Below, piece by piece: positions 9,919-58,309 of a stretch of DNA of 64,000 nucleotides (its first letter is position 1; the number at the start of each line of letters is the position of its first letter). The translations under genes and the position numbers were made by a program. Source of the DNA: Eukaryota sp. GEM-RC1. Lineage: Eukaryota. Below the pieces are notes generated by a model. That model saw only the letters and a program-made list of their open reading frames with translations. It was not told the DNA's origin and searched no databases. The stretch covers positions 1,736,001 to 1,800,000 of the forward strand of contig JAUFOQ010000016.1 in NCBI GenBank assembly GCA_040285855.1, in the 5' to 3' direction.

Positions 9919-9997
9919 ATCTGATCTATGAGATTTCAAGAGTGATTCATTCCAAGTCTACCACAGTCTGATTCTATTTTCGTCTCTTGATACTAAT

Positions 9998-12315
9998 ATG
10001 TTTCAACACTTCTGTGGTCGCTCACGAGTAGATAGTACTTGCACCAACTCTATAGGTCTTGCACTTGATGTTGATTATGCAGGGAGAGATCGTGTTGACA
10101 GTCTTGGGGTAAGTTCTCCTGTTTTTACACAGCAGCTTCATCGCGATGCTCCCTCAACATTGTCGCAATACACAAAGGTTGCGAAAGTTGGTAGCGGGGC
10201 CTCTGGTGAAGTTTGGCTTTGTCTTAATGCTGAGAAACAGGAAGTTGCCATGAAGATCATCCCACTTAAGCGTACTCATGGTCCTGATTTGTTATCCAAC
10301 GAAACATTACGAGAAATTGCCATTCTCCGCAAACTTGACTATCCCAACATTTTACGCTTGCAAGATTACGTTGTGGACCCTGATGCTCGAAAGATCTACA
10401 TCGTCACTGAGTTCTGTGATATGGGTCCATTGATCAAAGACAGTGACATTGGTTCTTATAAGCCTCTATCTCCTGCCAAATCACGCAAAATCTTTGGTCA
10501 AATAGTTGCTGGACTGCACTATATACATTCAAATGGTATCGCTCATAACGATATTAAACCGTCTAATATTCTCCTAAGTCGCTCTAAAGATGCCTCGCTG
10601 CGGGTTGTTATAGCTGATTTTGGTATCTCATCTCGTCTGGGCAGATCGGTTTCTTACTTTCAAGGCTCTCCGCTGTTCCTTGCTCCTGAGTGTTTAACAC
10701 AAGAACCTGGAGGTGATGACTTTTCTGACGGCACTGCTGCTGATATCTATGCCTTGGGTGTTTGCCTCTATGTGCTCTGCTTCGGTCGTTCTCCGTGGGG
10801 AGACGTTATCACACGTGATGGACTTGAACAAGCTGTTTCCAGATTATGTAGCTGGAAAACGAATTCTAGAAGTTCCTGCTGGTGGAGATGAAGCTCTTGA
10901 ACATCTCATCCGCTCCATGTTACACCCTAATCCCACTAAAAGAGCAACAATCAAAGAAATCCTTGCTGATCCTTGGCTTATGGCTAATACTGATTTGCCT
11001 ACCTACATCAATGCTGACAATAACCGCGCTCTTTCAATTTCCCTAAGTAGAACGGACATTGACAACGCTGTAACTGTTGTTTCAAACATCGACTTCGAAA
11101 CAAGAGTTGGAAGTGACACGTGGTCTGCTACTCATTTGTCTGAAGCTCAACGTAACCTACTTGTTTTCCATTCTGCCATTAATCTATTGAATCTTTGTAC
11201 TAGGTTGATGGATCTTGCTGGAGCTCACTGTTCACCCAATAGATCCCGCATTACTGAACAACTTCTGTCCTGGACCTCGTCGTGTTGTGATGAATCCGTA
11301 GACCCCGCTGACGTATGCTTTACCAGTCTTCAATATGGACTGACTTTTATTGAGTGGTCCAAGGCTCTTGAAGAGGACGTTGTATCGTCAATTGATGACG
11401 TTACTGAAACAAAGAGATATGAATTCAAGATGAAGCAACTTGACTATGTTAAGAATAAGGTACTGCCTATCTTAAAACAACGTATTCAAGAACTTGTATT
11501 TAGATTGAAGGCATCAGAGGTCAATCCTAATCATAACATTGATTGTGTGGGGCCGTGGAGGTATTTCAAAGCAAAGAATATCTGTAATAATTTTAAAGCA
11601 GTTTTTGATGCTATTTCACATAATCCTGATTCATCATCCAGAATTCATTTCATTTGTAATGCACAATGCGTTCTTAAGCCACCGTGTACTTCGCTTCCTG
11701 TCCACACCATTCACCTGGATGTTGGTATATCTGATGTAGGATTTTCTGATCACTTTTGCTCCTCGTCTGGTGATGAAATGGTCCTACCAAAGACTCATAC
11801 TTCTGACAAGGAATTGATTAATCCTGTCTATCTTCCCGCTGTTGCTGTTGACATCCTTCGTGATTTAATTTGTAACTCTCGAAAGTATAGTCCTCCTGGT
11901 ACTGTGATTAGAGCTGCTGTCTGGAATCAGATGAATAAGGGTCGGAATTACCTTCACATGGGTGTAAATGATGCTGGAATTGGCATGGAGGATCCTGAAG
12001 CTCTAGTTCAATTTGGAGCCACGGGAAATCAAGAACGTAGAGGTTTTGGAAGAGGATTTGGTCTTACAAAGTGTTTTGTCACTGTTACGTCGTTTTTGAA
12101 TGGTACTTTCTCAGTGACCTCACTTCGAGATCGTGGTACTTGCATTCAAATAGCTATCCCTGTACCAGAAGAAGCAAAGGTCAATATTGACACTCGCCCT
12201 CCTTGGATTTTTTGCAGGTTCTCAACTTAACGTCGAAGAAGTAAGTCAGTTTGATGATATTGATAGTGACGTTTCATTTGACAGTGACTATAGTGATGTA
12301 GAAATGTTTGACTAG
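9998..12315 (+). CDS. Ser/Thr protein kinase fused to a histidine-kinase-type HATPase_c domain, copy 1
   Basis: Kinase motifs GSGASG, VAMK, HNDIKPSN, DFG and APE. C-terminal N box (RDLICNSRKY), G1 (NDAGIGM), G2 (GRGFGLT) and GTCI. Frameshift near 10840; an acidic tail runs to 12315 in the +1 frame. Confidence 0.88.
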
Positions 12316-13231
12316 GTTTGTTACATTATGTCTAGTAGTTTTGGACTTACTCTGTTTTCTATGAATTACACTGTTTGTTGGGTAGAGATATTGTTTGTTT
12401 TTGATTTATAATGAACTTTGTCCTTACTTATCTCCATGACAGATCTCTCTGTTGTAGTGTACATTTTGACTGCAAAATTTTTGAGTCATCACCAAACACA
12501 CGTCAACTATCTCTCATTCACATAAAATCAAAAATCCACTGTATCTATAAACTCGACACCCACCGAAGAAGTTTTAAAAGGGTCATTCGGATGTGACAAT
12601 TTGTTGATGAAACTCTGTAAATACTAGTATTGTAGCATGTGTAGTCATCCAATTAACAACTTCCAACTTTCGATATCAGGTGGTAGTAGAGCAAGAAAAG
12701 GATAACATACTAGCACATACAGAAAAAAGCCAAATATAATTATCCTTAGGTCAGGTCCTTCTTAAAAGAGAAGAGAAGAGCCTAGAGAGTTTTAAACAGC
12801 ATAATCCCAGCAAAAAGGACACTCCAGCATATTTACTACATTTACTGAATTTGGCAAGTCTCCTAAAAGAGAAACAAATTCCAAATTTGTGTTTCAACCT
12901 TTTGCCAAAAATTTGCCAATATCTATTACCAAACTTATCTGCCAAATTTCGAGTTGATTGTTTAGCTCTATTGTTTCACCGTTTGTACTTTACCGCTTTG
13001 TTTTCTCAAATGTGTACTTCAGTGACAGTTGCTTTTTCAATATTGATTTCTAGCTGTTGTTTTGGTCTATTGTGCCTGTCGAGTATTGACTGACGTAAAT
13101 TCTGTCCTTCCCTTCATACTTACTTCACTTGTCAATGATACTTTCTACATTTTACAACAATCATTCAAGTATTACAGTTTCAATATTTGTTAGTCTGCTT
13201 TGTACTGTAGTATTGTATTAAAAATAATTAT

Positions 13232-16010
13232 TTGATTTGCGGAGATTGTCTCTCTGTTGATACTCTTCGTCCTCCTGTGAAAATTTCGAATCAACTCAGC
13301 CCCAAAGGTTCCATTCCTTTTTCTATTGCTTTTCGGTCTTTTACTCTAGCGCTTTCACTAGGTTCTTGGGATGTTCTTCACATCTGGAAGTTTTTTCTTG
13401 AGAAACAATCTCAATCCTGCACTCACCCTAAGAAAGTGTTTGCTCCAAAGAAATTACCAAAGGAAAATATTGTACGTCAACAACTTCTTCGAGGTAGGTA
13501 TGGTTCAGCTAAGAATGCCATATTTTCATCAGATCTCGCTCCTGTTTCTGATGACACTGTTTCTCAACTTCAGGCTCTTCATACATTGGAAAAATTTTCT
13601 CCTGTCAAGCCTATGCCTTCTTTGTATTGGAAAGAAAACCCCATTAGAGTGGATGAGTTGATTAGTTGTATTTTAAAACTCCCTTCAGAAAAAGCTCTTG
13701 GACCTTCAGGTATTACTTTTGATATGCTCAAATCTGTTTCACGTCAAAATTCACTTATTGTTGAAGATTTATGTCTCTTTTTCAACAATGTTTTGTTATC
13801 GAAGGTTGTTCCTCCTAAAGAGTTGTCTGCTTCTGGTTTGGTTGCACTGATTAAGCCTAACAAGAAAATCCGTCCTATTGCTGTCGGTGAAGCTACTTAC
13901 CGTCTGTTTGCTTCTGTTGTTTTTGGAAGAATTTCCAACAAAGCCAAGGATTTCTTTTCACCTTACCAATATGGTATTAAAACCATTGATGGAGCTTCTG
14001 TGGCTGCCCTTTCTTCTGATGTTTTCTTCAACGCGGTTGAAATTAATTGCATTTTGAATTTGGATTTTAAGAATGCTTTTAATTCTGTTAAACGATCTGC
14101 CATTTGTTCTGAATTGGAAAAGAGTTTTCCCGAATTAGGTACCTGTTTTCATTGTTTTTATGGTCACTCTTCTGACTTGGTTTTTAATTCATTTGTTCTT
14201 AATTCTGTTTCTGGTGTTAAACAAGGAGATCCTCTTGGTCCCTTCTTTTTTTGTTTGGCTATTCATCCAATCTTGAAAAACTCAAAGAAGAACATGCAGA
14301 CTTAGAAATTGTAGCTTATATGGATGACATTTCTTTTATTGCTCATATGTCAACTCTTCGTATTATTGCGAATCAGGCTGCTGATTTGTACGATGCAATT
14401 GGACTTCAATTAAATGTGCAAAAATGTTTTTGATTGCCAAAGTACCTGTAACTTTAATTGTTAATTCTTTAGAGGTTCCCTTTGTGAACTACTTATCTTC
14501 AAGCTTTAGATTTCTAGGTTGCTATCTTGGTTCACATGACAACATTGTTAAAGATCTGAATGTATATTTGGATTCAATGCGAAAAGAATTAGATCAAATT
14601 AAGGAATTGCAATTGGAAAAACATTTCAAATTCTTTATGCTAAAAATTTGTTATTCAGGAAAAGTTACTCATCTGCTTCGCTCTTTGCCCCCTGTACTTA
14701 CCTATAACTTCTGTAGAAGCTTTAACAAAATTTGAACTGACTTTCTAGCATTTTTGTTATCAGTGGATCCTGATGCTTTGAACAATCACATCTTCTCAGA
14801 TCCTCATCTAGGTGGTATTGGTTTTACTTCGTCTAAATGGTGGACCAAATCTGCTTCCATTAGTGGTGGTAAGAATTTTGTCTTTGAGTTCTGTAGACAG
14901 TACCCAAGTCAAGAAAATCTTCTTGTTTCGACAAGTAGTTTTTTATTTGTAAATTTGAGATCAGAATTGTCGCTAATTTCACCTGACCTCTGGCAAACTT
15001 GTTTTCCAGCAGATATTTGTGAAATACCAGAACGATGTGTCACCTCGTTAAAATTTGCTCTTAAGAAACTCCAAAAACACCTTTTAAAACATTTTGAATG
15101 TTTGGATTTTAAAATTCGTCTTGGCTCGGCCAAAGAAAAAATCCAGCTTTCGCAAATTTTTAAATCGATTTGAAGGACAGTTCTTCAGTTGCTTTGATTA
15201 ACCAAATTCCTCAGATTTATGGTTTGTTGTTGAATGATCATCAATGGACTACAACATTTAGACTTCGATGTTTCTTGTGGCCCTCTAATTTACCCAATGA
15301 TCTTCAATGCAAATGTGGTAAATTAGTTATTTTTTCTCACCTTTTGAGTTGTAATCGTTTCATTTCTTATAGAACTTGTATTCATGATGCTGTCAGAGAT
15401 CAAATTCATGCAATGTGTAAGTCCTACAAAATAGAATCTTTCGTTGAGCCACTGTTGAGATCACTGGAAATCAATAATTCAAAAAATAGTGATTCTGATA
15501 AGACTTTTGGTAAACGAAGAGCTGATGTTATAGTTCCATCAGTTAATGATGAACTAACCGTTGTTGATGTGATTACTGTGGATGTTTGCAAAAAAAGTGC
15601 ATTCAAGGATGCTAAAAATGAAGTTTCTCCACTGAATTCTTCAGAACAATACAAGAGAAACAAATATGATGAACCATTGACTGCTCTCCAACATATTAGA
15701 CATGTTGAGTACAAATTATGTCCTTTTGCAATTTCAATTTATGGTCGACTTGGTAGAGATGCTCTTTGTTTTCTCTCTGATTTTGAGACAGTGGTCCAAA
15801 AAATGAACCAGAAATGTACCAAAAATTTTGGTTGAATCGTTTTGTTTTTACAATATTTAAAACAATTCCTGTCATGATTTCAAAAGCTCTATTCGCTCTC
15901 AGTGTTTTTTATGAAGAAAAAGCTGATGTGAGTTTTAATGGCAATGATTGTTGCTTTAATGATATTGAGTTCTAGTTTTTGTATTTCACTTACTGTTTAT
16001 GTTCCATAAA
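13232..16010 (+). mobile_element. Non-LTR retrotransposon with RT and C-terminal restriction-like endonuclease (CRE/R2-like, family A), disrupted
   Basis: RT motifs GPSG, RPIAVGE, LDFKNAFNS, GVKQGDPLGP, YMDD (14317-14328) and FLG. CCHC (CKCGK..HLLSC), HDAVRD and RADV..VVDV..KRNKY follow. There are several frameshifts and an in-frame TGA, and the 5' boundary is not determined. Confidence 0.92.
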
Positions 16011-16659
16011 GAAAAAATACTTTAAGTATTGCAATATTGGTTAAACAATTTTAATATTGATTTTGTGGCTGAAATGCTATGATATTTACAGTGTTGTGTT
16101 GTGATCCTACTTCAGAATAGGCTAGTATAGAATCAAAATACTTAGACATTGCTCTAAAAAGGGGAACTGACATCCTTGCTCTTCAATAAAATTCGTCCCA
16201 AACTGTTTACACAATTTTCCCAATAATTTTATACAAACATTAGTAAAAGTCTGAATGTGGTTTCTTGATATGTATATTTCATGTTGCACATAAGGAGAAT
16301 AAATTTGAAAGAAAATTGGAGACTGGTTTGTAGTTCGAGTATCTGGTAAAAAGTGGGACCAAAAAGAAAGTATTTGGTGACTCTGAGAACCTAAACCATC
16401 TCTGATCAACTGAAGGAGAAGGTGTTGTATGGGAAAGTGTGCTCTAATGTGAAACGGGTTTCGCCAGCTGTTCGAAGATTGCAAAGATTGAGAAGGCTTA
16501 TCAAAAAGACAAATGTAGTGGCTTGGCACCACGATCATTGGACAACAATCAGCGAATAGGAAAAGTACAAGAGTTGATAACAGTATATAAACTGGGATAA
16601 TCATCCAAACTGGGAAACAACCCTAGAGATCAAAAGTAATTCATTCAAGTCTGCCGTCG

Positions 16660-19007
16660 ATTCTATTTTCGTCTCTTGATAGTAACAAGCTCCCACACTT
16701 CTGTGGCCGCTCTCGTTTCGATGGTACTTACACCAACTCTCAAAGTCTTCAAATTGATGTTGGTTATGTCGGGAAAGATCGTGTTGACAGTCTTGGGGTA
16801 AATTCTCCTCATTTAACTCGTCAGCTTCATCGTGATACTCCCTCAACATTGTCTCAGTACACCAAAGTTGCGAAAGTTGGTAGCGGTGCCTCTGGTGAAG
16901 TTTGGCTTTGTCTTAATTCTGAGAAACAGGAAGTTGCTATGAAGATCATCCCACTTAAGCGTCATCATGGTTGTGATCTGTTATCTAGCCAAACTCTGCG
17001 CGAAATTGCCATACTCCGCAAACTTGACTATCCCAATATTTTGCACTTGCAAGATTACGTGGTCGATCCGGATGCTCGGAAGATCTACATCGTCACTGAG
17101 TTCTGTGATATGGGTCCATTGATCAAAGACAGTGACATTGGTTCTTATAAGCCTCTCCCTCCAGCCAAAGCACGCAAAATCTTTGGTCAAATAGTTGCCG
17201 GGCTGCACTATATACATTCAAAAGGTATCGCTCATAACGATATTAAACCATCTAATATCCTCCTCAGTCGCTCTAAAGATGCCTCGCTGCGGGTTGTTAT
17301 AGCTGATTTTGGTATCTTGTCTCGTCTGGGAGGATCCGATTCTACTTTCAAGGCTCTCCGCTGTTCCTTGCTCCTGAGTGTTTAACACAAGATCCTGGAG
17401 AAGATGACTTCTCTGACGGTACTGCTGCTGATATCTGTGCCTTGGGTGTTTGCCTCTATGTGCTCTGTTTCGGTCGTTCTCCGTGGGGAGACGTTATCAC
17501 ACGTGATGGACTTAAACACACTCTTTCGGAATATGTTGATGGACAACGAATTCTAGAAGTTCCTGCTGGTGGAGATGAAGCTCTTGAACATCTGATCCGT
17601 TCCATGTTACACCCTGATCCTTATAAAAGAGCTACAATCAAGGAAATCCTAGTTGATCCTTGGCTTTTGGCTGATACTGATTTGCCTGCATATTTCAATG
17701 TTGACGACAACCACGCTCTTTCAATTTCCCTAAGTAGAACGGACATTGACAACGCTGTAACTGTTGTCTCAAACATTGACTTCGAAACAAGAGTTGGAAG
17801 TGACACGTGGTCTGCTCATTTGTCTGAAGCTCAACGTAACCTGCTTGTTTTTCATTCTGCTATTAATCTATTGAACCTTTGTACTAAGTTGATGGATCTT
17901 GCTGGAGCTCACTGTTCACCCAATAGATCCCGCATTACTGAACAACTTCTGTCCTGGACCTCGTCGTGTTGTGAAATGGACGAAGAATCAGCAGATTCCA
18001 ATGATGTGTGCTTTACCAGTCTTCAATTTGGACTGACTTTTATTGAATGGTCCAAGGCTCTTGAAGAGGACGTTGTATCGTCAATTGATGACGTTACTCG
18101 ATCAAAGATATATGAATTCAAGATGAAGCAACTTGACTATGTTAAGAATAAGGTACTGCCCATCTTAAAACAACGTATTCAGGAACTTGTACTTAGATTG
18201 AAGGCATCAGAGATCAATCCTAATCATAACATTGATTGTGTGGGACCGTGGAGGTATTTTAAAGCAAACAATATCTGTAATAATTTTAAAGCAGTTTTTG
18301 ATGCTATTTCTCATAATCCTGATTCATCTTCCAGAATTACATTCATTTGTAATGGGCAATGCGTTCTAAAGCCACCGTGTACTTCGCTTCCTGTCCACAC
18401 CATTCACCTGGATGTTGGTATATCTGATGTAGGATTTTCTGATCACTTTTGCTCCTCGTCTGGTGATGAAATGGTCCTACCAAAGACTCATAGTTCTGAC
18501 AAGGAATTGATTAATCCTGTCTATCTTCCCGCTGTTGCTGTTGACATCCTTCGTGATTTAATTTGTAACTCTAGAAAGTATAGTCCTCCTGGTACTGTGA
18601 TTAGAGCTGCTGTCTGGAATCAGATGAATAAGGGTAGGAATTACCTTCACATGGGGGTCAATCTGCTGGAATTGGCATGGACGATCCTGAAGCTCTAGTT
18701 CAATTTGGAGCTACTGGAAATCAAGAACGTAGAGGTTTTGGAAGAGGATTTGGTCTTACAAAGTGTTATGTCACTGTTACTTCGTTTTTAAATGGTACTT
18801 TCTCAGTGACGTCACTTCCAGATCGTGGTACCTGCATTCAAATAGCTATCCCTGTACCAGAAGAAGCAAAGGTCAATATTGACACTCGCCCTCCTTGGAT
18901 TTTTTGCTGCCTCTCAATTTCATGTTGAAGAAGTATGTCAGTTTGATGATATTGATAGTGACGTTTCATTTGACAGTGACTATAGTGATGTGGAAATGTT
19001 GGATTAG
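16660..19007 (+). pseudogene. Ser/Thr kinase-HATPase fusion, copy 2 (pseudogene or error-broken gene)
   Basis: Near-identical to 9998-12315. The ATG matching 9998 is AAG here, and there are frameshifts near 17340 and 18660. Confidence 0.8.
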
Positions 19008-33644: not shown

Positions 33645-35596
33645 TCATGTTTTGGCTTTCTTCTTCTTAGTAGTAGCTGGTTTCCGTGTCTTCCTAACAA
33701 CTTTTTCCTTCGGTTTAACTTCCTTCTCCTCGTCATCACTTCCACCTGCTATTGAGTCAAACATTACACCTTTAGCCTTCAAAGTCCTTGTCAACTTTGC
33801 CTTGACCTTAGGTTCAACAGATGGTAGAGACATTCCAGGGAAAACATACTCGTTATTGAAGAATCCCCAGTCATCACGGTCAATCTGATATTTTTCCATT
33901 AATTCAACGACTGAATCGAGACCAGCTGAAACGTCATCTGATTGCACACTGATTGGTAAAGTGAGTTTTCGTAATAAATACGGTAGGTAATCTAGAGAGA
34001 ATGATGTTGATCCAGCTAACGTCACAGGATACGATCGCAAAGATAAATATTTAAATATTCGTTTGAATTTGCTAGTTTTGGAGTATTTGCCCAAAAACTG
34101 TGGAAAATCTGTTCTTTTTAAATCGCCACTGACTTTAACACCGGGATAAATACATGAAGTAATTGCTTTACAAGGCATCAAATGCCACGATTGATCTTCC
34201 ATAATTGACCGTCCAATTATATCTGATTCAGAAAACGATTGAGCTGCAACTGCCAAATTCTGCAATCGTTGATTGACGGGGACATTAAATGGAGCTTCAC
34301 TAAACAGATAATTCTCTTGAACCATTAACGGAACAAGATCGTCAACAAAATAATCATTCATACGGTCATAAATCCACGGTTTCTGTTTACCAATCATAAG
34401 TGATGAAGGTGGTGGTTTAAACATTGCAGGAACAACGGACCATGCGTTCTTTGATAGTTGTTTTAAATCTAACTTTTCAGCCACGTCAAGAAAGGAAACT
34501 GACCGTGATAATCCCAGAGCGAGTGATTGGAGTGCAGTGATGCTATATCTGACATCTGACTGTGACATTTCAATCAATTTTCGTAATGCATCGTCATCAA
34601 TTGCCACGTTTTCATTTTGAGCTATAGCACGTAACCGTGGTAGAACTTGATCAACAGTTGGAGGTCGGAACACCAAAGCCAACGAATAATTCTTTAAAGT
34701 TTTAAATTTTGGATCTCCAACATCATTACCAATACAAATAACAGGATGTTTACTTTTCTTAGCTAACTGAATCAACTGGGCTAACCCCCTCTATCCCCCG
34801 TACTCATTCCATCTACTTCATCCATAATAAGAACAGTTCTGTTAGTTCCCTGGCTTAACATTGACTCAACAGAGAATGAGGTCAAAAAGTCACGTGTTAG
34901 GTCATTAAGAAGTGTTTTTGAGCGTGTGTCTGAAGCATTGAGTTCCAGTTTCTTATAACCAAGTTCAGCTGCGATTAAGGAAGCTGCAGATGTTTTACCA
35001 ACACCTGGAGGGCCTGACAACAAGGCAATGTTATGAGGTCGGTCCTTGGAAGAGTAGAAGTTGTTAAGGAAAGTTCGAAGTGCTTTAATTGAAGTAGGAT
35101 TTCCAACGAGATCATTAGAAGTAGAAGGTCTGTACTTATCAGGCCAAACTGAGGAGTTAGAGCTTGGGTTGAGCTTAGGGACAAGTTTGGGTTGTGATAG
35201 GCTTGGCAGAGGTTGGGATAGGCTTGGCAGAGGTTGGCTACGAGGTAGTTTGAGTTTTGGCTTTTGGAGAACAGGAATTCTGAGAAGTGGTTGAGAGGTA
35301 GAGGTAAGAGTTGGTCTTTGATCTGAACGGGATCGTTCCTTTACCATGTCAAAAAGTTGTTGGAGGGTGATGGTTTTTGTGTGATTTTGGAACTTTTTCA
35401 AGAGATTTTGTAAAGGGGGAGAGATGTTTGAGCCCACTATGGCGAAGTCTGTGCGTTCTGAAGGTGTGATTTTGATTTGGGCTGAGTATTGTTCACAGTA
35501 TTGTTTTATTTCTGTGCTTGTGAAGGGGGAAAAATCACCCAGGACACACATAGAAGTGTTACGAAGACATCCAGGTGTACCTTGAGGGGGTTGCAT
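33645..35596 (-). CDS. RFC1: Replication factor C subunit 1 (frameshift near 34780)
   Basis: BRCT-like N-terminus, WPDKYRP, Walker A GPPGVGKT, ELNASDTRS, MDEVDGMSTGDRGG and the RFC1 C-terminal domain. Confidence 0.95.
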
Positions 35597-36095
35597 TGTT
35601 TCTCAACTAAGCTAAAAACACTTGTGTTGAATTCATTTGGGGTGCATACTCCCCAAAATCATTCTACATGTAGTTTTACCCCAAATACTCTTCACCCCAT
35701 AACCACATATCCCCAATCTGATACACTTATACCTTCTTTGATGGATTCCATACATCTTTTGATATCAAGTGTTGAGCTTCTTTCAAGATAGAGACGTGTT
35801 TGCAGGTATTCGTTCTTAGAATTGTGAACCGTGTTCAACCATGTCATGAATAAACTCAACGTTGTACAACAATCCTACAACACATACATCACATTGACAT
35901 CTTATCCTCCAAAGGAAAACACTAAGGTTTGCTACAACTCTGATCGTGTAATACACTGCTGTGTCTTCAGTCATTTTTGACTGCATTTTTCAATTCTATC
36001 AGATGCTATCTGGAATGAGACTAAGGTCAACGACATCAAGTCCATGAAGCTTCATTCATCAGAAGACACAAAGACACCAAGTTATAACTACATGT

Positions 36096-36740
36096 ACAAC
36101 ATTTGTAATGACAACATTTGGTGATACAACATTTGTAACTACAACATTTGAAACTACAACATTTGTAATGACAACATTTGGTGATACAACATTTGGTGAT
36201 ACAACATTTGGTGATACAACATTTGTAACTACAACATTTGTAACTACAACATTTGTAATGACAACATTTGGTGATACAACATTTGTAACTACAACATTTG
36301 AAACTACAACATTTGTAACTACAACATTTGTAACTACAACATTTGTAATGACAACATTTGTAATGACAACATTTGGTGATACAACATTTGTAACTACAAC
36401 ATTTGAAACTACAACATTTGTAACTACAACATTTGTAATGACAACATTTGTAATGACAACATTTGGTGATACAACATTTGTAACTACAACATTTGTAATG
36501 ACAACATTTGGTGATACAACATTTGTAACTACAACATTTGTAACTACAACATTTGTAATGACAACATTTGTAATGACAACATTTGGTGATACAACATTTG
36601 TAACTACAACATTTGAAACTACAACATTTGTAACTACAACATTTGTAACTACAACATTTGTAACTACAACATTTGTAATGACAACATTTGGTGATACAAC
36701 ATTTGGTGATACAACATTTGTAACTACAACATTTGGTGAG
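36096..36740. repeat. 15-bp minisatellite, 43 units
   Basis: Invariant ACAACATTTG followed by TAATG, GTGAT, TAACT or AAACT (last unit GTGAG). Confidence 0.97.
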
Positions 36741-36858
36741 AATCAATCTCAATCAACGTGTCCTATGTGTATTGAATTCTTATTGCTCATAATTTTGTCT
36801 TCTATATATAATGTCGTTAAACACAACCAATAAAATATACAACCTCAGTTTATCAAAC

Positions 36859-37970
36859 TTAACTAACACTACTATATCCCCCCATCACCCTCGCAAACAT
36901 CACAGCCAACGAAAACGACTCCTTATATCCAATCCCACAACAATACTCACACATCACTTCACGAAATTCATCCAATATTCCCAAACAATGTTCATCACAC
37001 ATCACTTCATCATTTAAATCTAATATCGACACAACAAAAGTATTGGTCAACGACAACACATTAAAGTACTTGTCCCTATCATTCAAATGAAAACTCAAAA
37101 TTTTGGCCATTATTAAATTTAAATCTTTTAACAACTGAAGTTTCAATTTCATATGTGGAAGACAATTTGATGTTGTATCATTTTGGTTCCAGTGCAGTGG
37201 TACAATATTGTGGACAATTGTGAGAACCTTTGTTTCTGTCTGCATGGAAATAGTACGAGTATTGTTCAAGTTGTTTTCAAAGTCTGTCTGAAGACCAAGT
37301 GAATTTGTTATTCTGTTGATAGATTCAGTGTCCTCATGATCTGTAACTTTTCTTGATAATTTCAAACTAGGTAAATTCGAATTTGGTTTGAGAGTATTTC
37401 GAGACAATAGATTTGGTCTCAATTTAGGCAAAGTAGTAAATCAATACGACGTTTTGGTGAAGGAAAAACGACTTGAGATGGAGTATCGTTAATGCGAGTA
37501 TTGTCACAAGCATGTAAAAGAGTAGGAGACTGAGGCTGAGGAGGAGGAGGGGAACGAGCAATTGTAACTCGTTTAACGTCTTTGAGTAGATCCTTAAGAT
37601 GATTTAGAGTTGAAGTTGTTGATTGAAGTGGAAGAGATATGTCACGCTTCTCATAAGAACCATCAAAAGGAAAGAGATGAACAGTTTCTAGATCAACATC
37701 TAGCACAATGGCAACGGCTGCTTTGTAGTTGAGGCAAAAATCCATGGTACCCTTTTTAAGATCATCTGGTAAGTCAGATGTTGACACTTCCGTTATGTGG
37801 ATGGATTTAGTTCTCCATGAATTGTATGTTCCATAAGGAAGAAGAACAAGTGACAAATTAACTGCATGCTTATCAGCAAGCTTTACAACAAGTTTCATAT
37901 ATGTTTTGATGGTACGGGAACGACTTTCTTGTTCAGAAGTATTTCTGAGTTTGAAAATTGAGTAGGACAT
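36859..37970 (-). CDS. Orphan ORF(s) inside the Fanzor element (183 aa + 190 aa, possibly one frameshifted gene)
   Basis: Overlapping ORFs 37419-37970 and 36859-37431, divergent from the Fanzor ORF. No motif recognised. Confidence 0.5.
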
Positions 37971-38117
37971 GGGAAATTCTGGTATAGACTTTATTACAGA
38001 TTTCGTTTTTTAACACGTGAATTCCCACACACATGTCCATTACAGTCTGTGTGGGATTTCATTTTCCTTCCTCCTACAGTATAAATGTCGTTTGTTCTGC
38101 ATCCAAACAGACGTTGT

Positions 38118-38492
38118 CCGCCATTCTGTCCTTATCTGACTCAACTTGTGACTGTTTCCATTGCACGGTTTCGGGCTCAGTTGAGTTTAGATAAGGACAG
38201 TTCTTTCCCTCCACTGCCTCCGCTTCTGTTGCTTCTCCCTCTACTGCCGTTGCTTTCCCCACTTCTGTTGCTTCGATAATGCCGCCATTCTGTCCTTATC
38301 TGACTCAACTTGTGACTGTTTCCATTGCACGGTTTCGGGCTCAGTTGAGTTTAGATAAGGACAGTTCTTTCCCTCCACTGCCTCCGCTTCTGTTGCTTCG
38401 ATAATGCCGCCATTCTGTCCTTATCTGACTCAACTTGTGACTGACTCCATTGCACGGTTTCGGGCTCAGTTGAGTTTAGAAAAGGACAGTTC
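38118..38492. repeat. Three tandem copies of a unit containing a 75-nt hairpin
   Basis: Hairpins at 38126-38200, 38290-38364 and 38415-38489. CTGTCCTTATCTGACTCAACT pairs with AGTTGAGTTTAGATAAGGACAG. Confidence 0.9.
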
Positions 38493-38526
38493 ATTCTGTG
38501 TTTTATCAACACATACATTTATTGCC

Positions 38527-41500
38527 ATGAAGTACTCGTCTCCCCTGTTTATCCCTTCCCATCCTCCGTTCCCAAAAGACCTCACCGCTGATGGTGATAT
38601 TGAATCCAATCCAGGACCCGTAACTCAAGAAGCCATAAACTCAGTTTATCCTAATCAATGGGTTGATGACGAAGCGATAGTGGAGTACTGTAAAGTGATA
38701 TTTCAAGAAGCAGGGTTAGACTTTGAAAGCATGTTTATCCATCCGACCACATGGCTTCAATACATTGTTTCACCAGATGTCCCGCTAGATCAATGGTTGT
38801 TGACGAAAATTGAGAAAAATCAAATCACAAACTCCAAGTATCTCTTTGTTCCCCTTAGTGATACCATGACTAGAAATACTAATTATTCCAGAGAAGGTGT
38901 CACTGGTTCTCATTGGGGTTTAGCCATTATAGACTGTTGTGAAAAGGAATGGATCTTCATTGATCCAATGTTAACTACCGTCGATATGACTAAGTCTATG
39001 GTAAAATCAGCTGTAGACATATTATCCGAAGTACTTGTGCCATGGGGGTATGTTTTCCGTTATGTACCTGTGACTAAAAGTCAGTCTGCTAACGACTGTG
39101 GAGTTTATGTCATTGCGTATATTCAAAAATATGTTGAACTTTTTAAAAGACTCATGTATGTTCCGTCTCTGATGTATTTGGAAACTTATTTGGTCCAAGT
39201 GAACAATGAACTTCAAGCAGACATATTTCGTGAAAAAATTCGGGATGTATTGTCTCAACAAAGGACACTTTATCTACAACAACGTCAAACCACAGTAGCT
39301 CCTATTGTACCATCGTTACCCATTCAACCTCCTGCCGGTAAAGAACATCCAACCACTTCAATTCCTCTCACAGGTTCACGTCTTGCTAGTACTAAAACAT
39401 CTACTGGTTTAAGCACTAAAAAAAGGAAAGCCAAAATTTCAGATGTTCCATCACCACGAGGTTCACCTTTAATTCAACGAAATAAATTTAGAACTACCAG
39501 CTCCCTTGTTTCAACTGGTGACACTCCAATACGAAAGACCCACCGCCGTATGTCCACATTGGAATCATCGGAATTACCACAATCTGAACTATCATCACCA
39601 TCTGAACTATCATCACCATCTGAACTACCACCATCTGAACTACCACCAAAATCACAGGCCTCCATTATGTCGTATCCATCGCCAATTCAAGAAGAAATCC
39701 AAAAAATGAAAGTAAATCTACACACTGAGCCTATAGAAGAAGAAATTCAAATTCAAGACTTTCTTAAATCCCCTTTACTTTGGAACAATCTGCCAACTTT
39801 TTGTTTAATTCATGTTCAAAGTGATTTTGCCAGTTCAGAAAGAATTAATGGCAAAAATGTTCAACTTGTTCAAGATGATGATGACATTGAAACTGTTGAA
39901 GGTGAAGCTGAAGATCAATTAGAAGTTAAACGTGATTCTTCTGTTGATCCGATTGTATCAATTTCCATCCAGATCATTGATCACAATGAATTTAATGAAA
40001 AGCATTTATTTTCTCATGGTAATTTTGATACTACAAACTTGGATTTGTGTACTTTACATATTTCAGATAGTGAATCCAGTATGCTTAAAAACTTCATTTC
40101 CTTCATTACTCAACATTGTCCGCGATTGTTTGTGAGTTATGACTTTCACTTAGATACATTTCCCTTTCTTGTATCACGTTGTCAAGTCCTCAAAATCAAT
40201 ACAACGTTTACTTTTCCAGAATTTAAACCCTATATTCCCTTTTGGTTCAACAAATGGTGTAAGGAAACAACTTTTGGTCCGTTTTTTAGTCTCGATTTGA
40301 ATGCTGTATTGAAGAATTTTTATGTCTTTACTGGTGGCCGTTTTTTGGAAAATGTTGTTCAAATTTTTCTTGAAATGAATAATTTTTCTAAAAATGAAAC
40401 TGTCAAACGCTTGGAAGAACTTGATCATGACTCTGATCCTGATGAAGTTCAATTGGTCAATGATGTCCAAAACTTGCATGGCATAATTGACAGTATTAAT
40501 GTTTTAGTTCCAGACAATCCCAAAGTGAAGGTCGATAAGATTAAAAAGAAATTTGTAAAAAATTTGGAGAAAGTAAATGAACTTTGGGCCAAGGAATCGA
40601 CAAGACCGCTATTGTTGATGAACTCAATTCAACAATTACCTCTGATTGAATACTTATTGGCTGACCTATTGGATCCCAAAAAACAAACATTACGTTCAAA
40701 GTCACCAATGAAAGTGGTTAAGAAACGACTAGACAATGTTGTATCCAAAGCGAAGGTTAAATTTATTGAATCTCGTGTTAAGAGAGCTCACCAAGTAAGA
40801 GTCCGTAGTACTCTCTTTTTGAAACATTTTTTTGTTCATAATTTTCACCATTCTGGTATTTTAGGTTACATTCAGAAGTTACTGCCTGCTGCTGTTCCAA
40901 ATGTAACTGTTAAGGAAGAAATGAATTCTGATACAGATGAGTCAACTGACGAAGAAACAGATGTACATTCAGAGTCTATCGATGCTACTGCTCCTCCCGT
41001 TAAATTAGAAAATATTGAAGATGCGAGTGGTGAACCTGAACCTGACCTTTGGACTAGAATTCAAACTACCAAAATTGAATTGCCAGACTGGAAGAATTTT
41101 TTTACGTTGAAATCAATGGAACAAGTGTTATCTATGATGACGATTAGGGACTACAAACTTGTAAACAATCAGAATCATATTAGGACTGTACAAGAATCGT
41201 TAACAAACATAATTTCTAAACCAAATGATGGCTCAACTCAAAATCAGTTTGCTCAACATTTCTTGATGCATTACATTCCTCGTTTAGAACTAGCTGCTCG
41301 ATCTGTTGGACTTGATAGGATTGTGTTTCCCAGTAGCCTCAATTTATCTCCTATATTGCATTACATGGCTACAGAAATTATTACAAATTACAAGACTAAC
41401 ATGAGTGAACACTTTCACGAATATGTTTTTCAAGTATTTAATTTGGTTACCCTGAAAAAAGATAGACTTAACAAGCTTACTGATAAGAATCAACGACAAG

Positions 41501-43589
41501 AGTTGTGTACAAAGCTTAATGAAGTCAGACAGTTGATCATTAATGGGGAAATTTCAAAAATTAATTTTCAAGATGTTGAAGTGTTTCCTGATCCCAATTC
41601 TAGACTGAGTTTACTATTTTTTAACTATTTGTTTACTTTTTTTGAAGGTAAAATGGAAAAAACAATTCATTATGCTGAAAAAGTAGATCCTTTGAAATTC
41701 TTAAGTCATGCAGTGTATTTGAAACGTCTTGTTGAGGACTCTTGTACTGGAGTTACTGCCAACAATCCTTTTCCTCTGACAAAATCATTGATTCCTAATC
41801 ATATCAGATTGGATACTACATGGTTTAAAAAAGTTTATGCATCAGAAATTAAAGGTAGCTTTGATGACGTTCGAAAAGATATTTGGCACTCAGTTTTGAA
41901 ACCAAAGTTTCTTCCAAAGTCATTGTCTCATGACTTCAAATACAGTTCTATTTCTACAGATGGAGTTAGCTGTAGTTTAATGATGATGCGGAAAGATCTG
42001 CTTGATGGGAGAGGAAATCCTCATAAGAAGGTGAAAGCTGTTGACTACACAGCTACTGAAAGGTACATTGATTCTTTGAGTTCCACAGAAATTCAAAACT
42101 TAAATTTGAAATCAAAAGGAATTGTTGCTATTGATCCTAATCAGCATGATTTGATGTATTGTGCTTCTTTAAAATCTAAGGAGGAAAAGAAAATCGAAGG
42201 TTTCGATACATCAGCCAATCTCAGAAGAAGAAAGATTTGTCCAAAATCGTCAAAGAAAAAAGGAAGCTTGAAAAAATTAAAAAAGGAATTGAAGGATTGG
42301 AAAGACGCACCTACTATTGACAAACCATCAACTGTCAAGTTGAAAAATCGAGACAATTGGAAAGTATTCAGATACACTGCTGGGGAACGCAATGCCGATA
42401 TTAAAAAAGTCTCCATGGAAAAGAAAAAAACAAGTAAGGAAAGAAAAAAGAGCTAAGAGGAAGAAGAGGAAGCTGGAGAAGAAAATAAGACGATACAATC
42501 TCCACCGTTTATCTGAATCCGAACGGTTACAACAATATTCTACTCAATTTATTCACATTCCAGATGGCAGACGCATTGACATAAATGGGCAACAAATTTT
42601 AGATCAATGGGGCTCTAACTCGCCAGGTAGTAAATCTTGTGAATTGACTCAGTATTCTGCTTTTGTTCTTGGTAAAGAAATTGCCTGCTCTTTACTACGA
42701 TCACCCACTACTGATCAAAAAACTACTGAAGGAATTTACGAAGAAAAGTGGTTTAGACGGAATCGTCTCACACAGTATTCAAGAAAGGAACGAAGTGAGA
42801 AAAACATGCTTCACAGATTTACTCTCCAGTTTGGAAACCCAGATGAAGTCGTTGTTGGGTATGGAGACTGGAACGACACTGCTTTTCGTCGAAGAAGAGG
42901 TAAAGCATCTACTGTAAAAGGTGCTTCAATTCGGAAATTATTGAGAAAATTTGGATTTAAAGTGTTCCTAGTTGATGAATTTAAGACCAGCAAATGTTGC
43001 TCTGCATGTGTTTCCAGAAACGACGAAGGTATCTGTTCCAATCCTGAAAGGATAAAAGTCACTGATCCTCATTGGAAGAAGAAGTTACAGAAGGAAGAGA
43101 AAGAATTAAAAAAGGAAATTATGGAACACAATCAATTAGACAATATTGTGGAGCGTAACTTTGATGATGAATGGACCAAACAGTTGACATTATCGAAAGA
43201 AAGATTGAAGAGCAAAAAAGTCTCACCATGGGGCTTAGTTGAATGTGCCAAATGTCATGTCCTCTGGAATAGAGACTTCAATTCTGCTATCAATATTTAC
43301 AATATTGTAAATGGAACCATTCAAGGTCAAGGTAGACCTGCCATCCTCGAGAGACCAAAATCTCAAACAACACCTGTCGTGGATGGCGGGAATACAGATC
43401 AGATTCCAAAAGAAAAAGACTGTGAGTAAGGGTAAGGGTAAAGCAAAGCGTCCTCTAACAAAAGTCAGAGGTCCTAACAAGTGTGGTATATGTTTTCAAC
43501 CTGGACATAACAGAGCAACTTGTCCAAATAAGCCTAAGAAAGATGTACCCAAGGACTCACATGTAAACCAGAAAGATCAGGAATCTTGA
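38527..43589 (+). CDS. Multidomain Fanzor: 2A peptide, Ulp1/C48 protease, PolB exonuclease-like, Fanzor RuvC nuclease, CCHC knuckle (two +1 shifts in A-runs near 42420 and 43410)
   Basis: DLTADGDIESNPGP; SHWGLAIID..IDP..QSANDCGVYV; STDGVSCSL; VAIDPN (D 42133); VGYGDW; LVDEFKTSKCCSAC (E 42977); CAKCHVLWNRDFNSAINI (D 43274); CGICFQPGHNRATC. Confidence 0.88.
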
Positions 43590-43708
43590 ATCTATGAAGT
43601 TAGCTCGTCTTAAAAGACTTTGCGAATGAGGACATTTATTTGTTCAAACTGTGGGTTTTGCTCTATGAGATCATGAAAATGTGAAGGGTTATTCCCTTAT
43701 GCATTTGG
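43590..43708 (+). ncRNA. Candidate Fanzor omegaRNA scaffold (3' part)
   Basis: Non-coding segment between the Fanzor stop and the inferred right end, ending in a 12-bp hairpin (43677-43706). The 5' extent is unknown. Confidence 0.45.
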
Positions 43709-43771
43709 AATGAAATTCACAGTTGTGTTTCAGAACCACATTTTGGAAAATAAAGCACAAATTCCACAACA

Positions 43772-44526
43772 ATGGCACAAAATAACCCAGCCCCCTCCCA
43801 ACCTGCTCCTGTCCCTACACAACCTGCTCCTGTTCAGCAACAAGCTCAAGTCATTCATATGCCTGCTCAGTACACCATCCCTCAGATGGGGTATCACCCC
43901 GGTTTAGCTGCTCCTCCAAAGAAGGGAGCTGTTAAACAAATCGTGGTTGTAGTCGCCGTTATTTGTATGTTTGTAGCTTTCTACTCTAACCACAGTAGTT
44001 CTTGCGGTTGTGATCGGAATCAACGCCTTCGATCTGGGCCTCGATATTCAATATCCCTACACAGTCTCAGTCTCTGGAGGTGCTGCAAGTTTTGGTATCA
44101 AAGGAGGAACGTATGGAGTTGATAAAGCCAACCACAAGTTTTACGGTGAGCTTGATGTCCCCTTCATTTCACTCTCAGGGGAACTGTTCTGCCTCAATGA
44201 CAAGATAAGGGCCAAAATTCTTGGACAATGCACTCCACAATTTCTTTCAGTTTCCTACGAATGTGATAAGTTGATAGACTTCGTTGGTTTGTTATGTTTT
44301 GCCTACTTATCATAGTTCCTGAGATCCCTTCGAGTGCCAAAAGACTGGTGAAAAGAAGAAAGTAGATTCTTTCTATGGTTTCCCAAGAAAGTGCTCGGTA
44401 TATGAAGATGGTAACAATACTTGGTGTGCCATCAACAACCGTATTTACGAACGGTGTGTTGGCCCTGCGTGTTTTACCTTTGAAAAGCACTCATTTGCAT
44501 CTGCAAGCGATTTTGAATGTTCGTGA
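43772..44526 (+). CDS. Type II membrane protein with Pro/Gln-rich N-terminus and a 31-nt intron (43965-43995)
   Basis: Splicing GTATGT...CTAACCACAG joins ORF 43772 to ORF 44010 through a TM helix. A further frame break lies near 44310. Confidence 0.75.
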
Positions 44527-54103: not shown

Positions 54104-57100
54104 TTACCTTTTTCGTAATAAATTCAAAAATCCGGTCCAAACAGTTAGAAACGCGTTACACGTGGAGGAAACTAATCCCTCCGGCTGATTACCATCAATA
54201 ATACCAACAACGTCATCAGAAGAGGTCAGAAAGGTTCTCAACCTTCCTAAAAGGGAAAATGCCTTCATCAAATTCATAACGTGAGTTCTTGTAGGGGCAT
54301 AGTGAAATGAGGCTTCCTCACCAAAATTTTTCAATTTTTCAAAAGGTTTGAAGGCTATTTCAAGATCATAAATGGCAAAGGAATTAATTAATTCAAATAG
54401 CGAACCCGTGCTAAAAACATGACTAACGCTATTAACGATGTTACGGGACGGTATCCAGGAAAAATTTAAAATAATTGAAGAAATTTTCAGTCTCGACAAC
54501 TTACTTGGTGAATCTTCACTATCATCGGTATGTGAAGACTCAGACTTTCTAGACAAATTTAAACATCTATAAAAGACTAATAAAAATTCAATTAATTCAT
54601 CGGATACACTGACAGAAAACGGAGAAATTTGAAAATGTACAGAATATTCACCATTTAGTATTAAAATTTCACATGATAGCGCTCCCAAATCAGAACTGAT
54701 CGATTGAGTGGGGCACGACAAAATTTGAAAATTTTTGGAATGTATACAGCTGTTGGCAGATATTCTGGAAATTGAAAAATTGAAAACCTTAGGGGATAGA
54801 GGATCAAACACTTGGAACGTCAGTTTTGGTCGTTCAAGAGTAACAGATACAATATCAGATGATAAAAATTTTAAATTTCCCAAGAAAGGTATTGACTTAA
54901 CAACCTCAGAAAAATTTTCAATACCAGAAACATTTGGATAACCATGAATAGAAATCAGAATACTGTTGAAATTAAAATTGAGAGCGAAAGTTGGCTTTTT
55001 TAAATTTTGTTCAGATTTTCCTTTGCGAAGCAGATAACAAGAGTCGATCAAATCGAACAAATTCTGATGTCTGGGAGACAATGAGAGGGAATAATTTGAA
55101 TTTTTTAATTTTTTCGATTCGGAAAGCATAAGTGCCGGAACACTAGAAACTGTAGAAGTATCACTTTCTTCGGGCAAAAATTTTGAAATACTAGACTTTT
55201 CCACAAACGATGTAGTAGCTCTCACGTCAACATCGTCTTCTGTTGAACTAGAGGGAAAATCTTTTTTTAACAAATTTAAAATATCAAATACACAATTTAG
55301 AACTGGAATCTGTAAATTCACAAAAGCATGTCCAGAACTTAATGATTTGGCTTCAATTGAAGTGCTTAAAAGAATAAGAATTAATTCGATCTCAGAAAAC
55401 GAGAACAAAATTTTAAAATCATCTTCTATAAGTCTGGATAGACAGTTTGATTGATCATCATGTGTAAAGCGAGAAAAATCAACAGTTAAAAACCCTGAAG
55501 ACTTCACTAGCAAACCGCATGAATTGACTTGGACAGACAATGATGAGCTCAATCCAAGATCAGAAAGGTCAAAAAGACTCGTGATCCTTCAATCAAAAAA
55601 CAAACTGATTGATCTTGACGCTGTGCAAAATTGATAGTCGAAAAACAATCAACTAAAATTATATCAAGATTTAATTTTTGTGGAGGAACTTCAATGGTCA
55701 TCAGTTCAGGACCTGTTGGTTTAAAATATTTAAAAATTCCTGATTCGATCACAAAACTACGATAGAATATTAAAATATCTGAGTAATTGGGTGGATTCAA
55801 AGCAATATTTGAGAGACGCAATCTAATTTGATTGATTGAATGAGAATCCTGATGGACAGAGAGAAATATACATGGAATGGATTTGGTTTCAACAGATTCT
55901 AAAAAGCTGTAGAATAAAGACTGAACATTTGCATTAGAATTGTTAATATTTGAATTGTTAATATTTTTAATATTTGGCGTGTTGGGACCGCTTAAAGGAC
56001 TGGAAAGTGGAGAAACAAACTCTGCTAATTCAGAATCTGAAATATTTGAAACATTCGAGCCATGGTCAGAAAACGAATCGAAAACGGACGGAAAATTTAA
56101 AGTATTCGAGAAGATTTGAATTTGCTTAACCATGAAGAATATAGTAGATTCGCAACTCAAAAACAAATCACAGGTAATATCCGTTAAAACCGTAGTCAAA
56201 TAACTATCAAAACAACCAACACGGAGTTTAAAAGAGCTCAATGACACGTTGACCCAAGTCAAATCAGTGACAATCGAATGAGCTTTACTGTCGTGAATGT
56301 CATTCTCAGAAATAATAGTGTAGAATTTAGATTCATGAGGTCTGGATGCAGAAGGTAAATCTACAGAGACAATAGAATTTAATAAATGCAAGAGATTTGA
56401 AAATTTTGTTCCATTTGAATTATTGATGAAGAATACCGCCTCTGAAATGGAAATCTTTGCTTGTTTTTGCGAATTGTTCTCATAGAAATGTGAAACAGTC
56501 AAAAATGATTGATAATCGGATTCTAATTGTAAAACAGAGGGCGCGTCATCAAATGATTGATGCGAACCAGGACCATCGCAATCACTGTAGACTTTCTGAG
56601 GAGGATATATTGGAACATTTGATTGAAATTGCTTATCATTTGATAGAAACGTCATGTCGACATTGATTTTGTTACAGAAATACCACAAATCCTCGGAATC
56701 TTCTAAAATTGAGTTAAAATCAGAAGTATGGGTCAATCCAACACAAAAATCAAAGGTCAAAATTGATTGGAAAGAGTCAATTGAAGAGGTTAATTGATTC
56801 AATTTGATAAAAGCAAAGTTTCTTGGAGATGAAGGTGAAGATATAAGAAAAACAAAATTATTTAAAAACAATGATATTTTAGCATTAACGGGTTCTGATT
56901 TTGATTGAAGTGATGACGATTTTGACGGAATCAATTGATGAAGAAAGGAAGCATGTTGCAATTTAAAACTTAAAAGAGACAAAAGAGATTGAAACAGTAA
57001 AAGGTTGCGAATTTGAAGAATTGTAGAAGATACAAAAACGTGATTGCAATCAAATTTGATCGATTTGTCGTGAATAGTTTTTAGTGATAGATCGTCTACC

Positions 57101-58131
57101 TCTAAAACGAGAGTTGAATTAAATTGAATCGTAACTGTGGAAACTTGCAAATCGAAATTCTGGGTGGAGTGTGAAATTAAAATTTTGGGACAGTTTAAAA
57201 TTCCTCCAAAGCAATCAGCTAAGCCGAATGAAACGGTACAATCAATAATTGTGACCTGAAATTCAAACATTAGATTGCTTATAGAATCGAACGATTCTGC
57301 AACTACGTCAAAATCTTCATTGTCTAAAATTTTGGAATATTTTAATAACTCAGAATCTGTCAAACAAACCGAGACAATATCCGGAGCAAAATCAGAATCA
57401 AAAAGTTCCCAATCTGTAAAAAAGGAGGACAAAAAATCAACAAAATTTAAAACATTGGTGGATAAACAGAATTCCAGAGCTACACCAGCAACAGTTGTAT
57501 CAACCTTAAACAATGAGTTTTGAAAAGAAAAAAGACATTCCAGTGACATAATATTTAAAATATTGAAGGAAATAGAATTAGATTGTGCACTAAGTTGAAT
57601 TTTGGAGATCTCCAATTTTTTGAAAAAATGGTGAACACTTGATTGTGTGAGTAATTGTGGCATAATAGACAGGCGATTCATTGAACACTCAATCAGATTT
57701 GATTGACACGGTGACACCATTGATAAAACTAAGCCATCTATTTCAACAATTGAGACCGAAGCAAGTTTCTGGAGAAGAGATTCAATGAGAGGACTAAGAA
57801 AAGAGAGAATACCAGAAGAATCGAAAGCATCATCCGAAGACACATCATCCGGTGTGGAATTGAAGAGAGAAAACAAGGAGGAAGTGGGTGAAGCAGAGAT
57901 AGCGATATCTTTGATGAATAGAGATGTTTTCAGGATGTTAACTTGGAGAAGAGAGCATTTAACACTGTGGAAGTGGAAAGGGAGGTTTAGAGTGTTCAGC
58001 CAATTCACATCAAGTTCGGCGTCAGAAATGGAAACTTTGCCAGTAAAAGAAGCAGAGACAGACTGAGGTGCACATGGATTGATGAATGGAAGTCGTTTAA
58101 GTATGTATGTCAGAAGCATAGCAAAGAGCAA
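54104..58131 (-). CDS. Divergent ATG2-like (chorein family) lipid-transfer protein, frameshift near 55550
   Basis: Chorein-N-like start (LLTYILKR...ISDAELDVNWLN..LPF), beta-rich body and ATG2-like C-terminal ILNFSWIP...LFELIN. Confidence 0.6.
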
Positions 58132-58309
58132 GGAGCATTATTTGAACAAAGATGTCTGAATGAATGTTCGCAATTTGCTTGACAATATACTATGATAGTA
58201 TATTGCACTTCAATACCACGATTGCTGAAACGTAGCAACTGCAGCTTTACAACAATTACATCAGTAATCGTGTTCTCATTAACATCTGATTTGGTTCAAA
58301 GAAAACTTC

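Follow-up and report, generated by a model that had tools for sequence, protein, structure and literature searches.

A conserved DLTxDG-class 2A-type peptide heads a predicted protease-exonuclease-Fanzor1 open reading frame and probably releases a variable leader

Within the 64,000-nucleotide stretch of DNA analysed here (the window), a peptide of the 2A or StopGo type lies near the start of a long open reading frame (ORF) whose predicted product carries, behind the 2A, a SENP8/Ulp1-like protease, a dead PolB-type exonuclease, Fanzor1 and a zinc knuckle, in that order. Judged by sequence, the 2A on this unusual Fanzor1 polyprotein is real and conserved. It is of the DLTxDG class, and we consider it probable that skipping at this site sheds a variable leader and leaves an enzyme whose first residue is proline, at the boundary of its leading domain.

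The 2A motif

The peptide FPKDLTADGDIESNPG followed by proline is encoded on the forward strand at 38569–38619, an extent set by the positions conserved in divergent representatives and by the match to a tested class. Its aromatic anchor, F, lies at 38569, and the predicted skip falls between Gly (38614–38616) and Pro (38617–38619). DLTADGDIESNPG followed by P is the sole NPGP across the six frames of the window. A preliminary description had placed a perfect D(V/I)ExNPGP about 30 codons after the ATG at 38527, and this is correct: the core reads DIESNPGP, and a count from that ATG reaches Gly at codon 30 and Pro at codon 31. Positions 38578–38619, given there for the motif, do encode DLTADGDIESNPGP in the frame of the ORF 38359–42456; the K quoted with it belongs to the preceding codon, at 38575. 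Upstream of the motif the frame is open for at least 30 codons from ATG 38527, and for 71 codons from a second in-frame ATG at 38404.

A motif this short might match a consensus by chance. However, the six-frame composition of the window predicts only 3.6e-5 matches to D[VI]ExNPGP and 1.2e-6 when the preceding G is included, another six residues ahead of the core agree with a known class, and the motif is conserved across families and species, so that coincidence is improbable in the extreme.

The whole 2A region reads FPKDLTADGDIESNPGP and was compared with motif 4 of Li et al. (PMC12846837), the DLTxDG class. In the parts of that work that concern this class, the motif opens with WV(R/K)DLTx[acidic]G and has Asp and Ser at p12 and p15, respectively. 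An example is reported to be nearly 100% active in reticulocyte lysate, and mutants of the characteristic upstream residues were almost always inactive. The window has FPKDLTADG, that is, DLTxDG with a W/F-x-(R/K) lead, together with D12 and S15. Its anchor is F where motif 4 has W, and F or W fills this position in nine of nine representatives. Rao et al. (PMC12338488, Table S1) list the iflavirus peptide PnPV-2A2 (activity 0.48), with which the window agrees at 14 of its last 15 residues, and EoPV-2A2 (activity 0.99), with which it agrees at 13 of 15. The tests in the same source include 17 class A peptides, 14 of which skipped and three of which were inactive, and short 2A versions were weak; Table S2 holds the window's 14-mer as a single entry, predicted and unclassified. 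We found no 2A activity assay in any metamonad in our literature search. With a class that is experimentally active elsewhere and the DLTxDG lead in place, the earlier assignment is borne out, and at the level of sequence we confirm the motif as a 2A/StopGo-type peptide.

Conservation and distribution

The nearest proteins, 87–93% identical, are named Eukaryota sp. GEM-RC1, and a more distant family is named TZLM3-RCL. Both are Skoliomonas, free-living anaerobic metamonads, whose assemblies were made from nanopore reads with Illumina correction, according to sections of bioRxiv 10.1101/2023.05.03.539051. Judged by similarity, the window belongs to the same organism or to a near one. It had been proposed that homologous copies be checked for loss of the motif; they keep it, in 15 of the 15 close copies that reach the protease start and also in the second species. 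The remaining 18 of the 33 cluster members examined begin downstream of the protease start. Across 238 collected proteins and the window, 47 family sequences contain the GD[VIT]ExN core, 43 in canonical and 4 in altered form; sources were looked up for all but ten of the 47. Four proteins were dropped before this count, one with a chance core (P0138) and three that are virus-like with multiple 2As (P0177, P0202 and P0203). The latter three are unnamed, 683–982 amino acids long and carry up to four DLTxxG-class 2As; P0177 has no Pfam match, and all three are probably RNA-virus polyproteins.

When nine divergent representatives are anchored on the skip site, L−12, G−8, D−7, E−5, N−3, P−2, G−1 and P0 are invariant, positions −13 to 0 are conserved, and position −16 is F or W. 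Eight divergent representatives match the window at 9–14 of the 15 motif residues, and their flanks are 12–35% (next 60 residues) and 13–30% (preceding 30 residues) identical to the window. This pattern bears on the alternative of a relic motif, which would either have no activity on host ribosomes or lie upstream of the real start, and would be carried along with the 5' region of the element. The four altered cores would suit such a relic; however, conservation peaks sharply at the very residues required for skipping, between flanks that are only 12–35% identical. Pfam family PF26935, found on P0208, was considered as a 2A family and rejected; it also marks the short Fanzors P0150 and P0237.

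In TZLM3-RCL the motif occurs on intact 2A-exonuclease-Fanzor proteins of 1394–1494 amino acids that have no protease. P0056 (1473 amino acids, 33% identical) is an unbroken 2A-linker-exonuclease-Fanzor1 protein of this kind with ExoI, ExoII and ExoIII intact, and P0182, P0208 and P0226–P0228 resemble it. Because the 2A is retained in these proteins, it is not part of the protease. The preliminary description spoke of a protease-Fanzor; across the family, what stays with the 2A is the exonuclease-Fanzor unit, and the protease is an optional addition. ORFs with 2A and protease occur in both Skoliomonas species. The Fanzors of the two species form one group (SH-aLRT 99) in a quick tree with long branches, built without a Fanzor2 or TnpB outgroup from 71 Fanzor N-halves (6 from Skoliomonas, 41 protein matches of 560–850 amino acids, and 24 of 80 viral loci). 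The 2A-exonuclease-Fanzor unit is probably older than the split of the two species, and the protease probably either a later insertion or lost in one line.

Several arrangements within the family deserve separate mention. In P0056, P0182, P0208, P0226, P0227 and P0228 a PolB-type 3'-5' exonuclease whose catalytic residues are complete is fused to Fanzor1, and five of the six reach the full C-terminus. The subfamilies of P0005, P0024, P0040 and P0196 have two tandem Ulp1-like domains behind the 2A. Leaders, proteases and exonucleases are mixed between subfamilies.

Beyond Skoliomonas, no 2A was found in 80 viral Fanzor1 loci (773 kb), which were those kept from 174 and are all ordinary Fanzor1. 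Word-based searches, which are weak, returned no long relatives outside the two Skoliomonas assemblies. A metagenome scan with an alignment of 2A and protease gave 461 pattern matches, and the 20 loci kept have the motif only, with a protease behind the 2A in none. Metagenome contigs L085 (791–1030), L087 (755–994) and L090 (757–1029) contain frames of 80–91 codons that end 12 residues past a DLTGDG-class 2A.

Domains behind the 2A

A predicted cysteine protease of the Ulp1/C48 type (CE clan) occupies 38620–39294 on the forward strand, as indicated by Pfam, profile search, AlphaFold and fold search. Peptidase_C48 covers residues 90–204, and H129, D146, Q186 and C191 (numbered from ATG 38527) supply the His-Asp-Cys triad and the oxyanion Gln expected of the fold, which is itself recovered in the model. 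A profile of 15 protease sequences compared with solved structures ranks SENP8 first (E 1.2e-16), with Ulp1 at 7e-15. The AlphaFold model has a pLDDT of 85 and its closest fold is NEDP1. Residues 1–30 are predicted to be disordered and the first helix to begin at residue 34, which places the predicted skip site three residues ahead of the first protease helix. A Ser/Pro/Lys-rich linker of low complexity follows (39295–39780, forward strand, defined by composition), and its basic stretch may be a nuclear localization signal.

A domain like the 3'-5' exonuclease of family-B polymerases lies at 39781–40690 on the same strand (Pfam, alignment with relatives), with DNA_pol_B_exo1 at residues 420–561. 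The ExoI, II and III acidic residues are lost in the window copy and intact in the TZLM3-RCL proteins; the AlphaFold model of this region is poor (pLDDT 46).

The Fanzor1 core is divided between two frames as assembled, both on the forward strand. Its N-terminal half (40699–42408), recognized by structure-sequence matches and comparison with viral Fanzor1, has the RuvC-I Asp at 42133. The C-terminal half (42401–43429), in the next frame, contains the GDW motif, the rearranged Glu (42977), the C4 zinc finger and the RuvC-III Asp (43274); Pfam finds the TnpB zinc ribbon (PF07282) in this frame following that of the ORF. The RuvC Asp, rearranged Glu, C4 finger and RD motif of Fanzor1 are thus all present. 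Among solved Fanzor and TnpB sequences only SpuFz1 and PpFz1 match, which on this measure places the window protein closer to Fanzor1 than to Fanzor2 or TnpB. The 2A had been described as lying at the N-terminus of the Fanzor; the two do share one long ORF, but the Fanzor core begins near 40700, about 700 residues past the motif. From Met to RuvC-I the window protein measures about 1200 residues, compared with a median of 383 and a maximum of 400 in the 80 viral loci.

A basic tail with a CCHC zinc knuckle (43482–43523) lies in a further frame at 43401–43589, forward strand, and is fused to the end of Fanzor in homolog P0054. The candidate omega-RNA region, 43400–43760, has a folding z of −1.08, and no Rfam match to it was obtained at the gathering score.

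Frame breaks and the variable leader

As assembled, the window copy shifts frame by one base at four places, near 38207, 38371, 42405 and 43410, and all four coincide with base runs; the break within Fanzor is at the A run 42403–42408. All GEM-RC1-type copies examined are fragmented as annotated, a state that a relic would share, and other copies break elsewhere. Of 34 fragment ends, which are not independent of one another, 23 lie within 24 nucleotides of a run of at least six in the window sequence, compared with 17% of positions. Two further genes in the window, RFC1 (33645–35602, reverse strand) and V-ATPase D (3681–4423, forward strand), are also split at base runs, which suggests that the window sequence contains assembly errors left uncorrected. 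Given this clustering and the breaks in RFC1 and V-ATPase D, the frame breaks are probably assembly errors, with true slippage mutations as the alternative, and fragmentation of this kind argues against a decayed relic.

The leader is encoded at 38085–38568 on the forward strand by three copies of a 120–164-nucleotide repeat, spaced 164 and 125 nucleotides apart, as defined by repeat analysis and by homologs that read through. It contains ATGs at 38085, 38279, 38404 and 38527, and two of the frame changes, near 38207 and 38371, affect one and the same C run of the repeat unit. In the near-identical homologs P0009 and P0010 a single frame that opens at the equivalent of ATG 38085 runs through the tandem repeats. 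The in-frame repeat units of other subfamilies, about 23–58 residues long, are unrelated, and these subfamilies have no equivalent of ATG 38527. Annotated relatives have leaders of about 30–336 residues. The exceptions are four proteins that begin at a Met within the motif and so have too short a leader; these starts are possibly a choice of the gene caller. Gene callers choose the longest frame, so that in-frame leaders may be over-counted. Homologs read through from the equivalent of 38085 and leaders vary, so ATG 38527, which is indeed in frame and gives the leader of about 30 codons first described, is one candidate start among several.

A start past the motif, as a relic might require, would fall inside the protease fold in the window. 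The first Met after the motif is residue 69, past two protease helices in the AlphaFold model, so that a start there would harm the protease fold. Most TZLM3-RCL copies, on the other hand, have a Met in the linker 34 residues past the motif, so that internal initiation is possible there; for these copies, whose downstream Met favours the relic, the argument fails. With the evidence from conservation and frame breaks also considered, we regard a relic as unlikely.

The leader might itself be functional, as a signal or a small peptide, with partial skipping giving two locations or products. Some leaders do contain stretches of 12 residues that are hydrophobic (Kyte-Doolittle mean up to 2.8), and 2A-like signal sequences provide a reported precedent (PMC4981915). 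However, the window leader from ATG 38404 peaks at 1.57, and no sequence is common to the leaders of different families, whose length varies tenfold. A functional leader is therefore a decidedly unlikely explanation.

Proposed role of the 2A

In the favoured reading, leader release, the tandem-repeat leader offers several AUGs, any of which could start translation; the ribosome would then skip the Gly-Pro bond, and the repeat-encoded leader would be let go. Pro, lying where the first domain begins, would become the first residue of the protease-exonuclease-Fanzor, with an identical N-terminus in every copy. Such a uniform N-terminus would leave the leader repeats free to expand, contract or be exchanged. 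Some ribosomes may also stop at the 2A and so limit the amount of the DNA-cutting protein.

The last step may instead be the selected effect, with skipping real, stalling or drop-off limiting a genotoxic nuclease, and the N-terminus immaterial. Attenuation was put forward for the ORF2p of retrotransposons (Luke et al., PMC3894237), many eukaryotic N-terminal 2A-like peptides reduce protein abundance in a published survey, and the 2A of the present family persists when the domain behind it changes. In contrast, the class is reported to be nearly 100% efficient in vitro (PMC12846837), the skip site lies three residues ahead of the first protease helix, and leaders so variable would need to be removed in any case. 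We judge attenuation as the selected effect to be a lesser, though appreciable, possibility; it is compatible with leader release rather than exclusive of it.

A motif of 15 residues yields no phylogeny, so that capture from a virus or retroelement is indistinguishable here from convergence. The DLTxDG class is commonest in RNA viruses. The retrotransposon in the window, at 13211–15835 on the forward strand, has no 2A; it is a frame-broken non-LTR element, which we take to be CRE/R2-like, with RVT_1 followed by a CCHC finger and what looks like a restriction-like endonuclease. Two related protein-kinase genes flank it (9932–12230 and 16627–18698, forward strand), the first with a histidine-kinase ATPase domain. 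Elsewhere in the window, two long ORFs of 494 and 862 codons at 54104–58137 on the reverse strand have no Pfam match.

The surrounding element

The Fanzor family is multicopy and likely a mobile element: 33 named proteins with many gene numbers, on at least nine contigs, represent many dispersed similar copies. Divergently transcribed from the 2A ORF is a truncated gene (37440–37970, reverse strand) that, by cluster comparison, corresponds to the first 177 residues of a multicopy 505-residue protein with 16 cluster members. The missing C-terminal part of this protein is probably a second C48 protease; the C48 call on the 505-residue protein comes from visible motifs and from Atlas leads at 0.91. 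When the divergent gene and the 2A-linked protease were compared by profile, the probability was 0.4%, which is not significant, and a PDB search with the divergent gene found no match. A MADS-like look of its start was set aside, being without Pfam support. A 193-codon frame without a Pfam match (36859–37440, reverse strand) is joined at the cut-off of the gene. Further left, repeat analysis and homolog comparison define a region at 36054–36735 on the forward strand with a 15-bp tandem array of 42.7 copies plus a short stretch common to P0003, which starts with 36054–36086, directly left of the array. The array, at 36095–36735, has open frames on both strands, and the region likely lies inside the left part of the element.

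No transposase families were found in Pfam scans of ORFs at and around the locus, and of the 538 inverted pairs in 35500–44200, the 25 longest include none that is convincing as a pair of element termini. Reverse transcriptase and APE endonuclease are absent from the window ORF and from its intact relatives of 1394–1494 amino acids. The element is possibly non-autonomous. More speculatively, and with only a modest chance of being right, it might be a transposase-free selfish element built like a viral polyprotein, in which the leader is shed and an RNA-guided cutter, an end-trimming exonuclease and a NEDD8/SUMO protease together steer host repair into copying the element.

Significance and comparison with known systems

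Each part of this arrangement is known, but our searches did not find the predicted combination of a 2A with a Fanzor1 polyprotein in print, nor any pairing of a 2A peptide with Fanzor in the literature searched. The word Fanzor is absent from the main text of recent 2A surveys (including PMC12846837), which in the portions available name RNA viruses, reverse-transcribing elements, RapGEF, and death-domain and ankyrin proteins. Metamonada, TnpB, Ulp1 and Helitron are absent from the available supplements of PMC12338488, as are both motifs and the names GEM-RC1 and RCL from those of PMC13405545. Ulp1, OTU and exonuclease go unmentioned in the passages available from Bao and Jurka (PMC3627910), and the 2A-protease-exonuclease-Fanzor architecture is absent in main-text passages of PMC10530073, PMC10432273 and PMC3708506, a scope that excludes Repbase and supplements.

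With a conserved 2A at the head of a Fanzor polyprotein, the known range of StopGo would widen to include RNA-guided DNA nucleases and Metamonada, and leaders of 30–336 residues, with or without a protease, offer a natural series for the role of N-terminal 2As in cellular proteins. If the transposase-free reading were true, no earlier case would exist in nature of a Cas12-family nuclease, a DNA element that is not a retroelement, or a metamonad using StopGo. Fusions of nuclease and exonuclease are a design made by hand in genome-editing groups; the intact TZLM3-RCL proteins would be natural, directly testable examples.

Ulp1-carrying DNA transposons include the Mutator-like Kaonashi, Zisupton and Ginger. 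The locus resembles such elements in its ubiquitin-like protease cargo, its divergent second gene and its CCHC knuckle, but neither a DDE transposase nor a SWIM domain nor a TIR was found in it. The 2A-bearing ORF2p of retrotransposons likewise has an N-terminal 2A ahead of a long, nuclease-bearing ORF of a mobile element, and some algal ORF2p have N-terminal deubiquitinase domains comparable to the protease described here. In contrast to ORF2p, the window ORF has neither reverse transcriptase nor APE, its nuclease is Fanzor1, and its protease belongs to the CE clan rather than to OTU or Josephin. The predicted protease is like SENP8/NEDP1 in its best profile and fold matches and in its catalytic residues, although identity is below 21% and Ulp1 scores close behind SENP8.

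With the viral 2As of the DLTxDG class (PnPV-2A2, EoPV-2A1 and EoPV-2A2, as represented in parts of PMC12846837 and in PMC12338488 Table S1) the window shares [FW]x[KR]DLTxDGD[IV]ESNPGP, the break falling ahead of the final P. However, the viral peptides lie between polyprotein domains, whereas that of the window, whose activity is predicted, belongs to a chromosomal multicopy element of a protist and lies near the N-terminus behind a repeat leader. The nuclease is like the Fanzor1 proteins SpuFz1 and PpFz1 in having the D...TS-xx-C4...RD motif, as outlined in part of Bao and Jurka (PMC3627910), GDW and the rearranged Glu. To this known Fanzor1 plan the window protein adds an N-terminal 2A, a protease, an exonuclease and a C-terminal knuckle.
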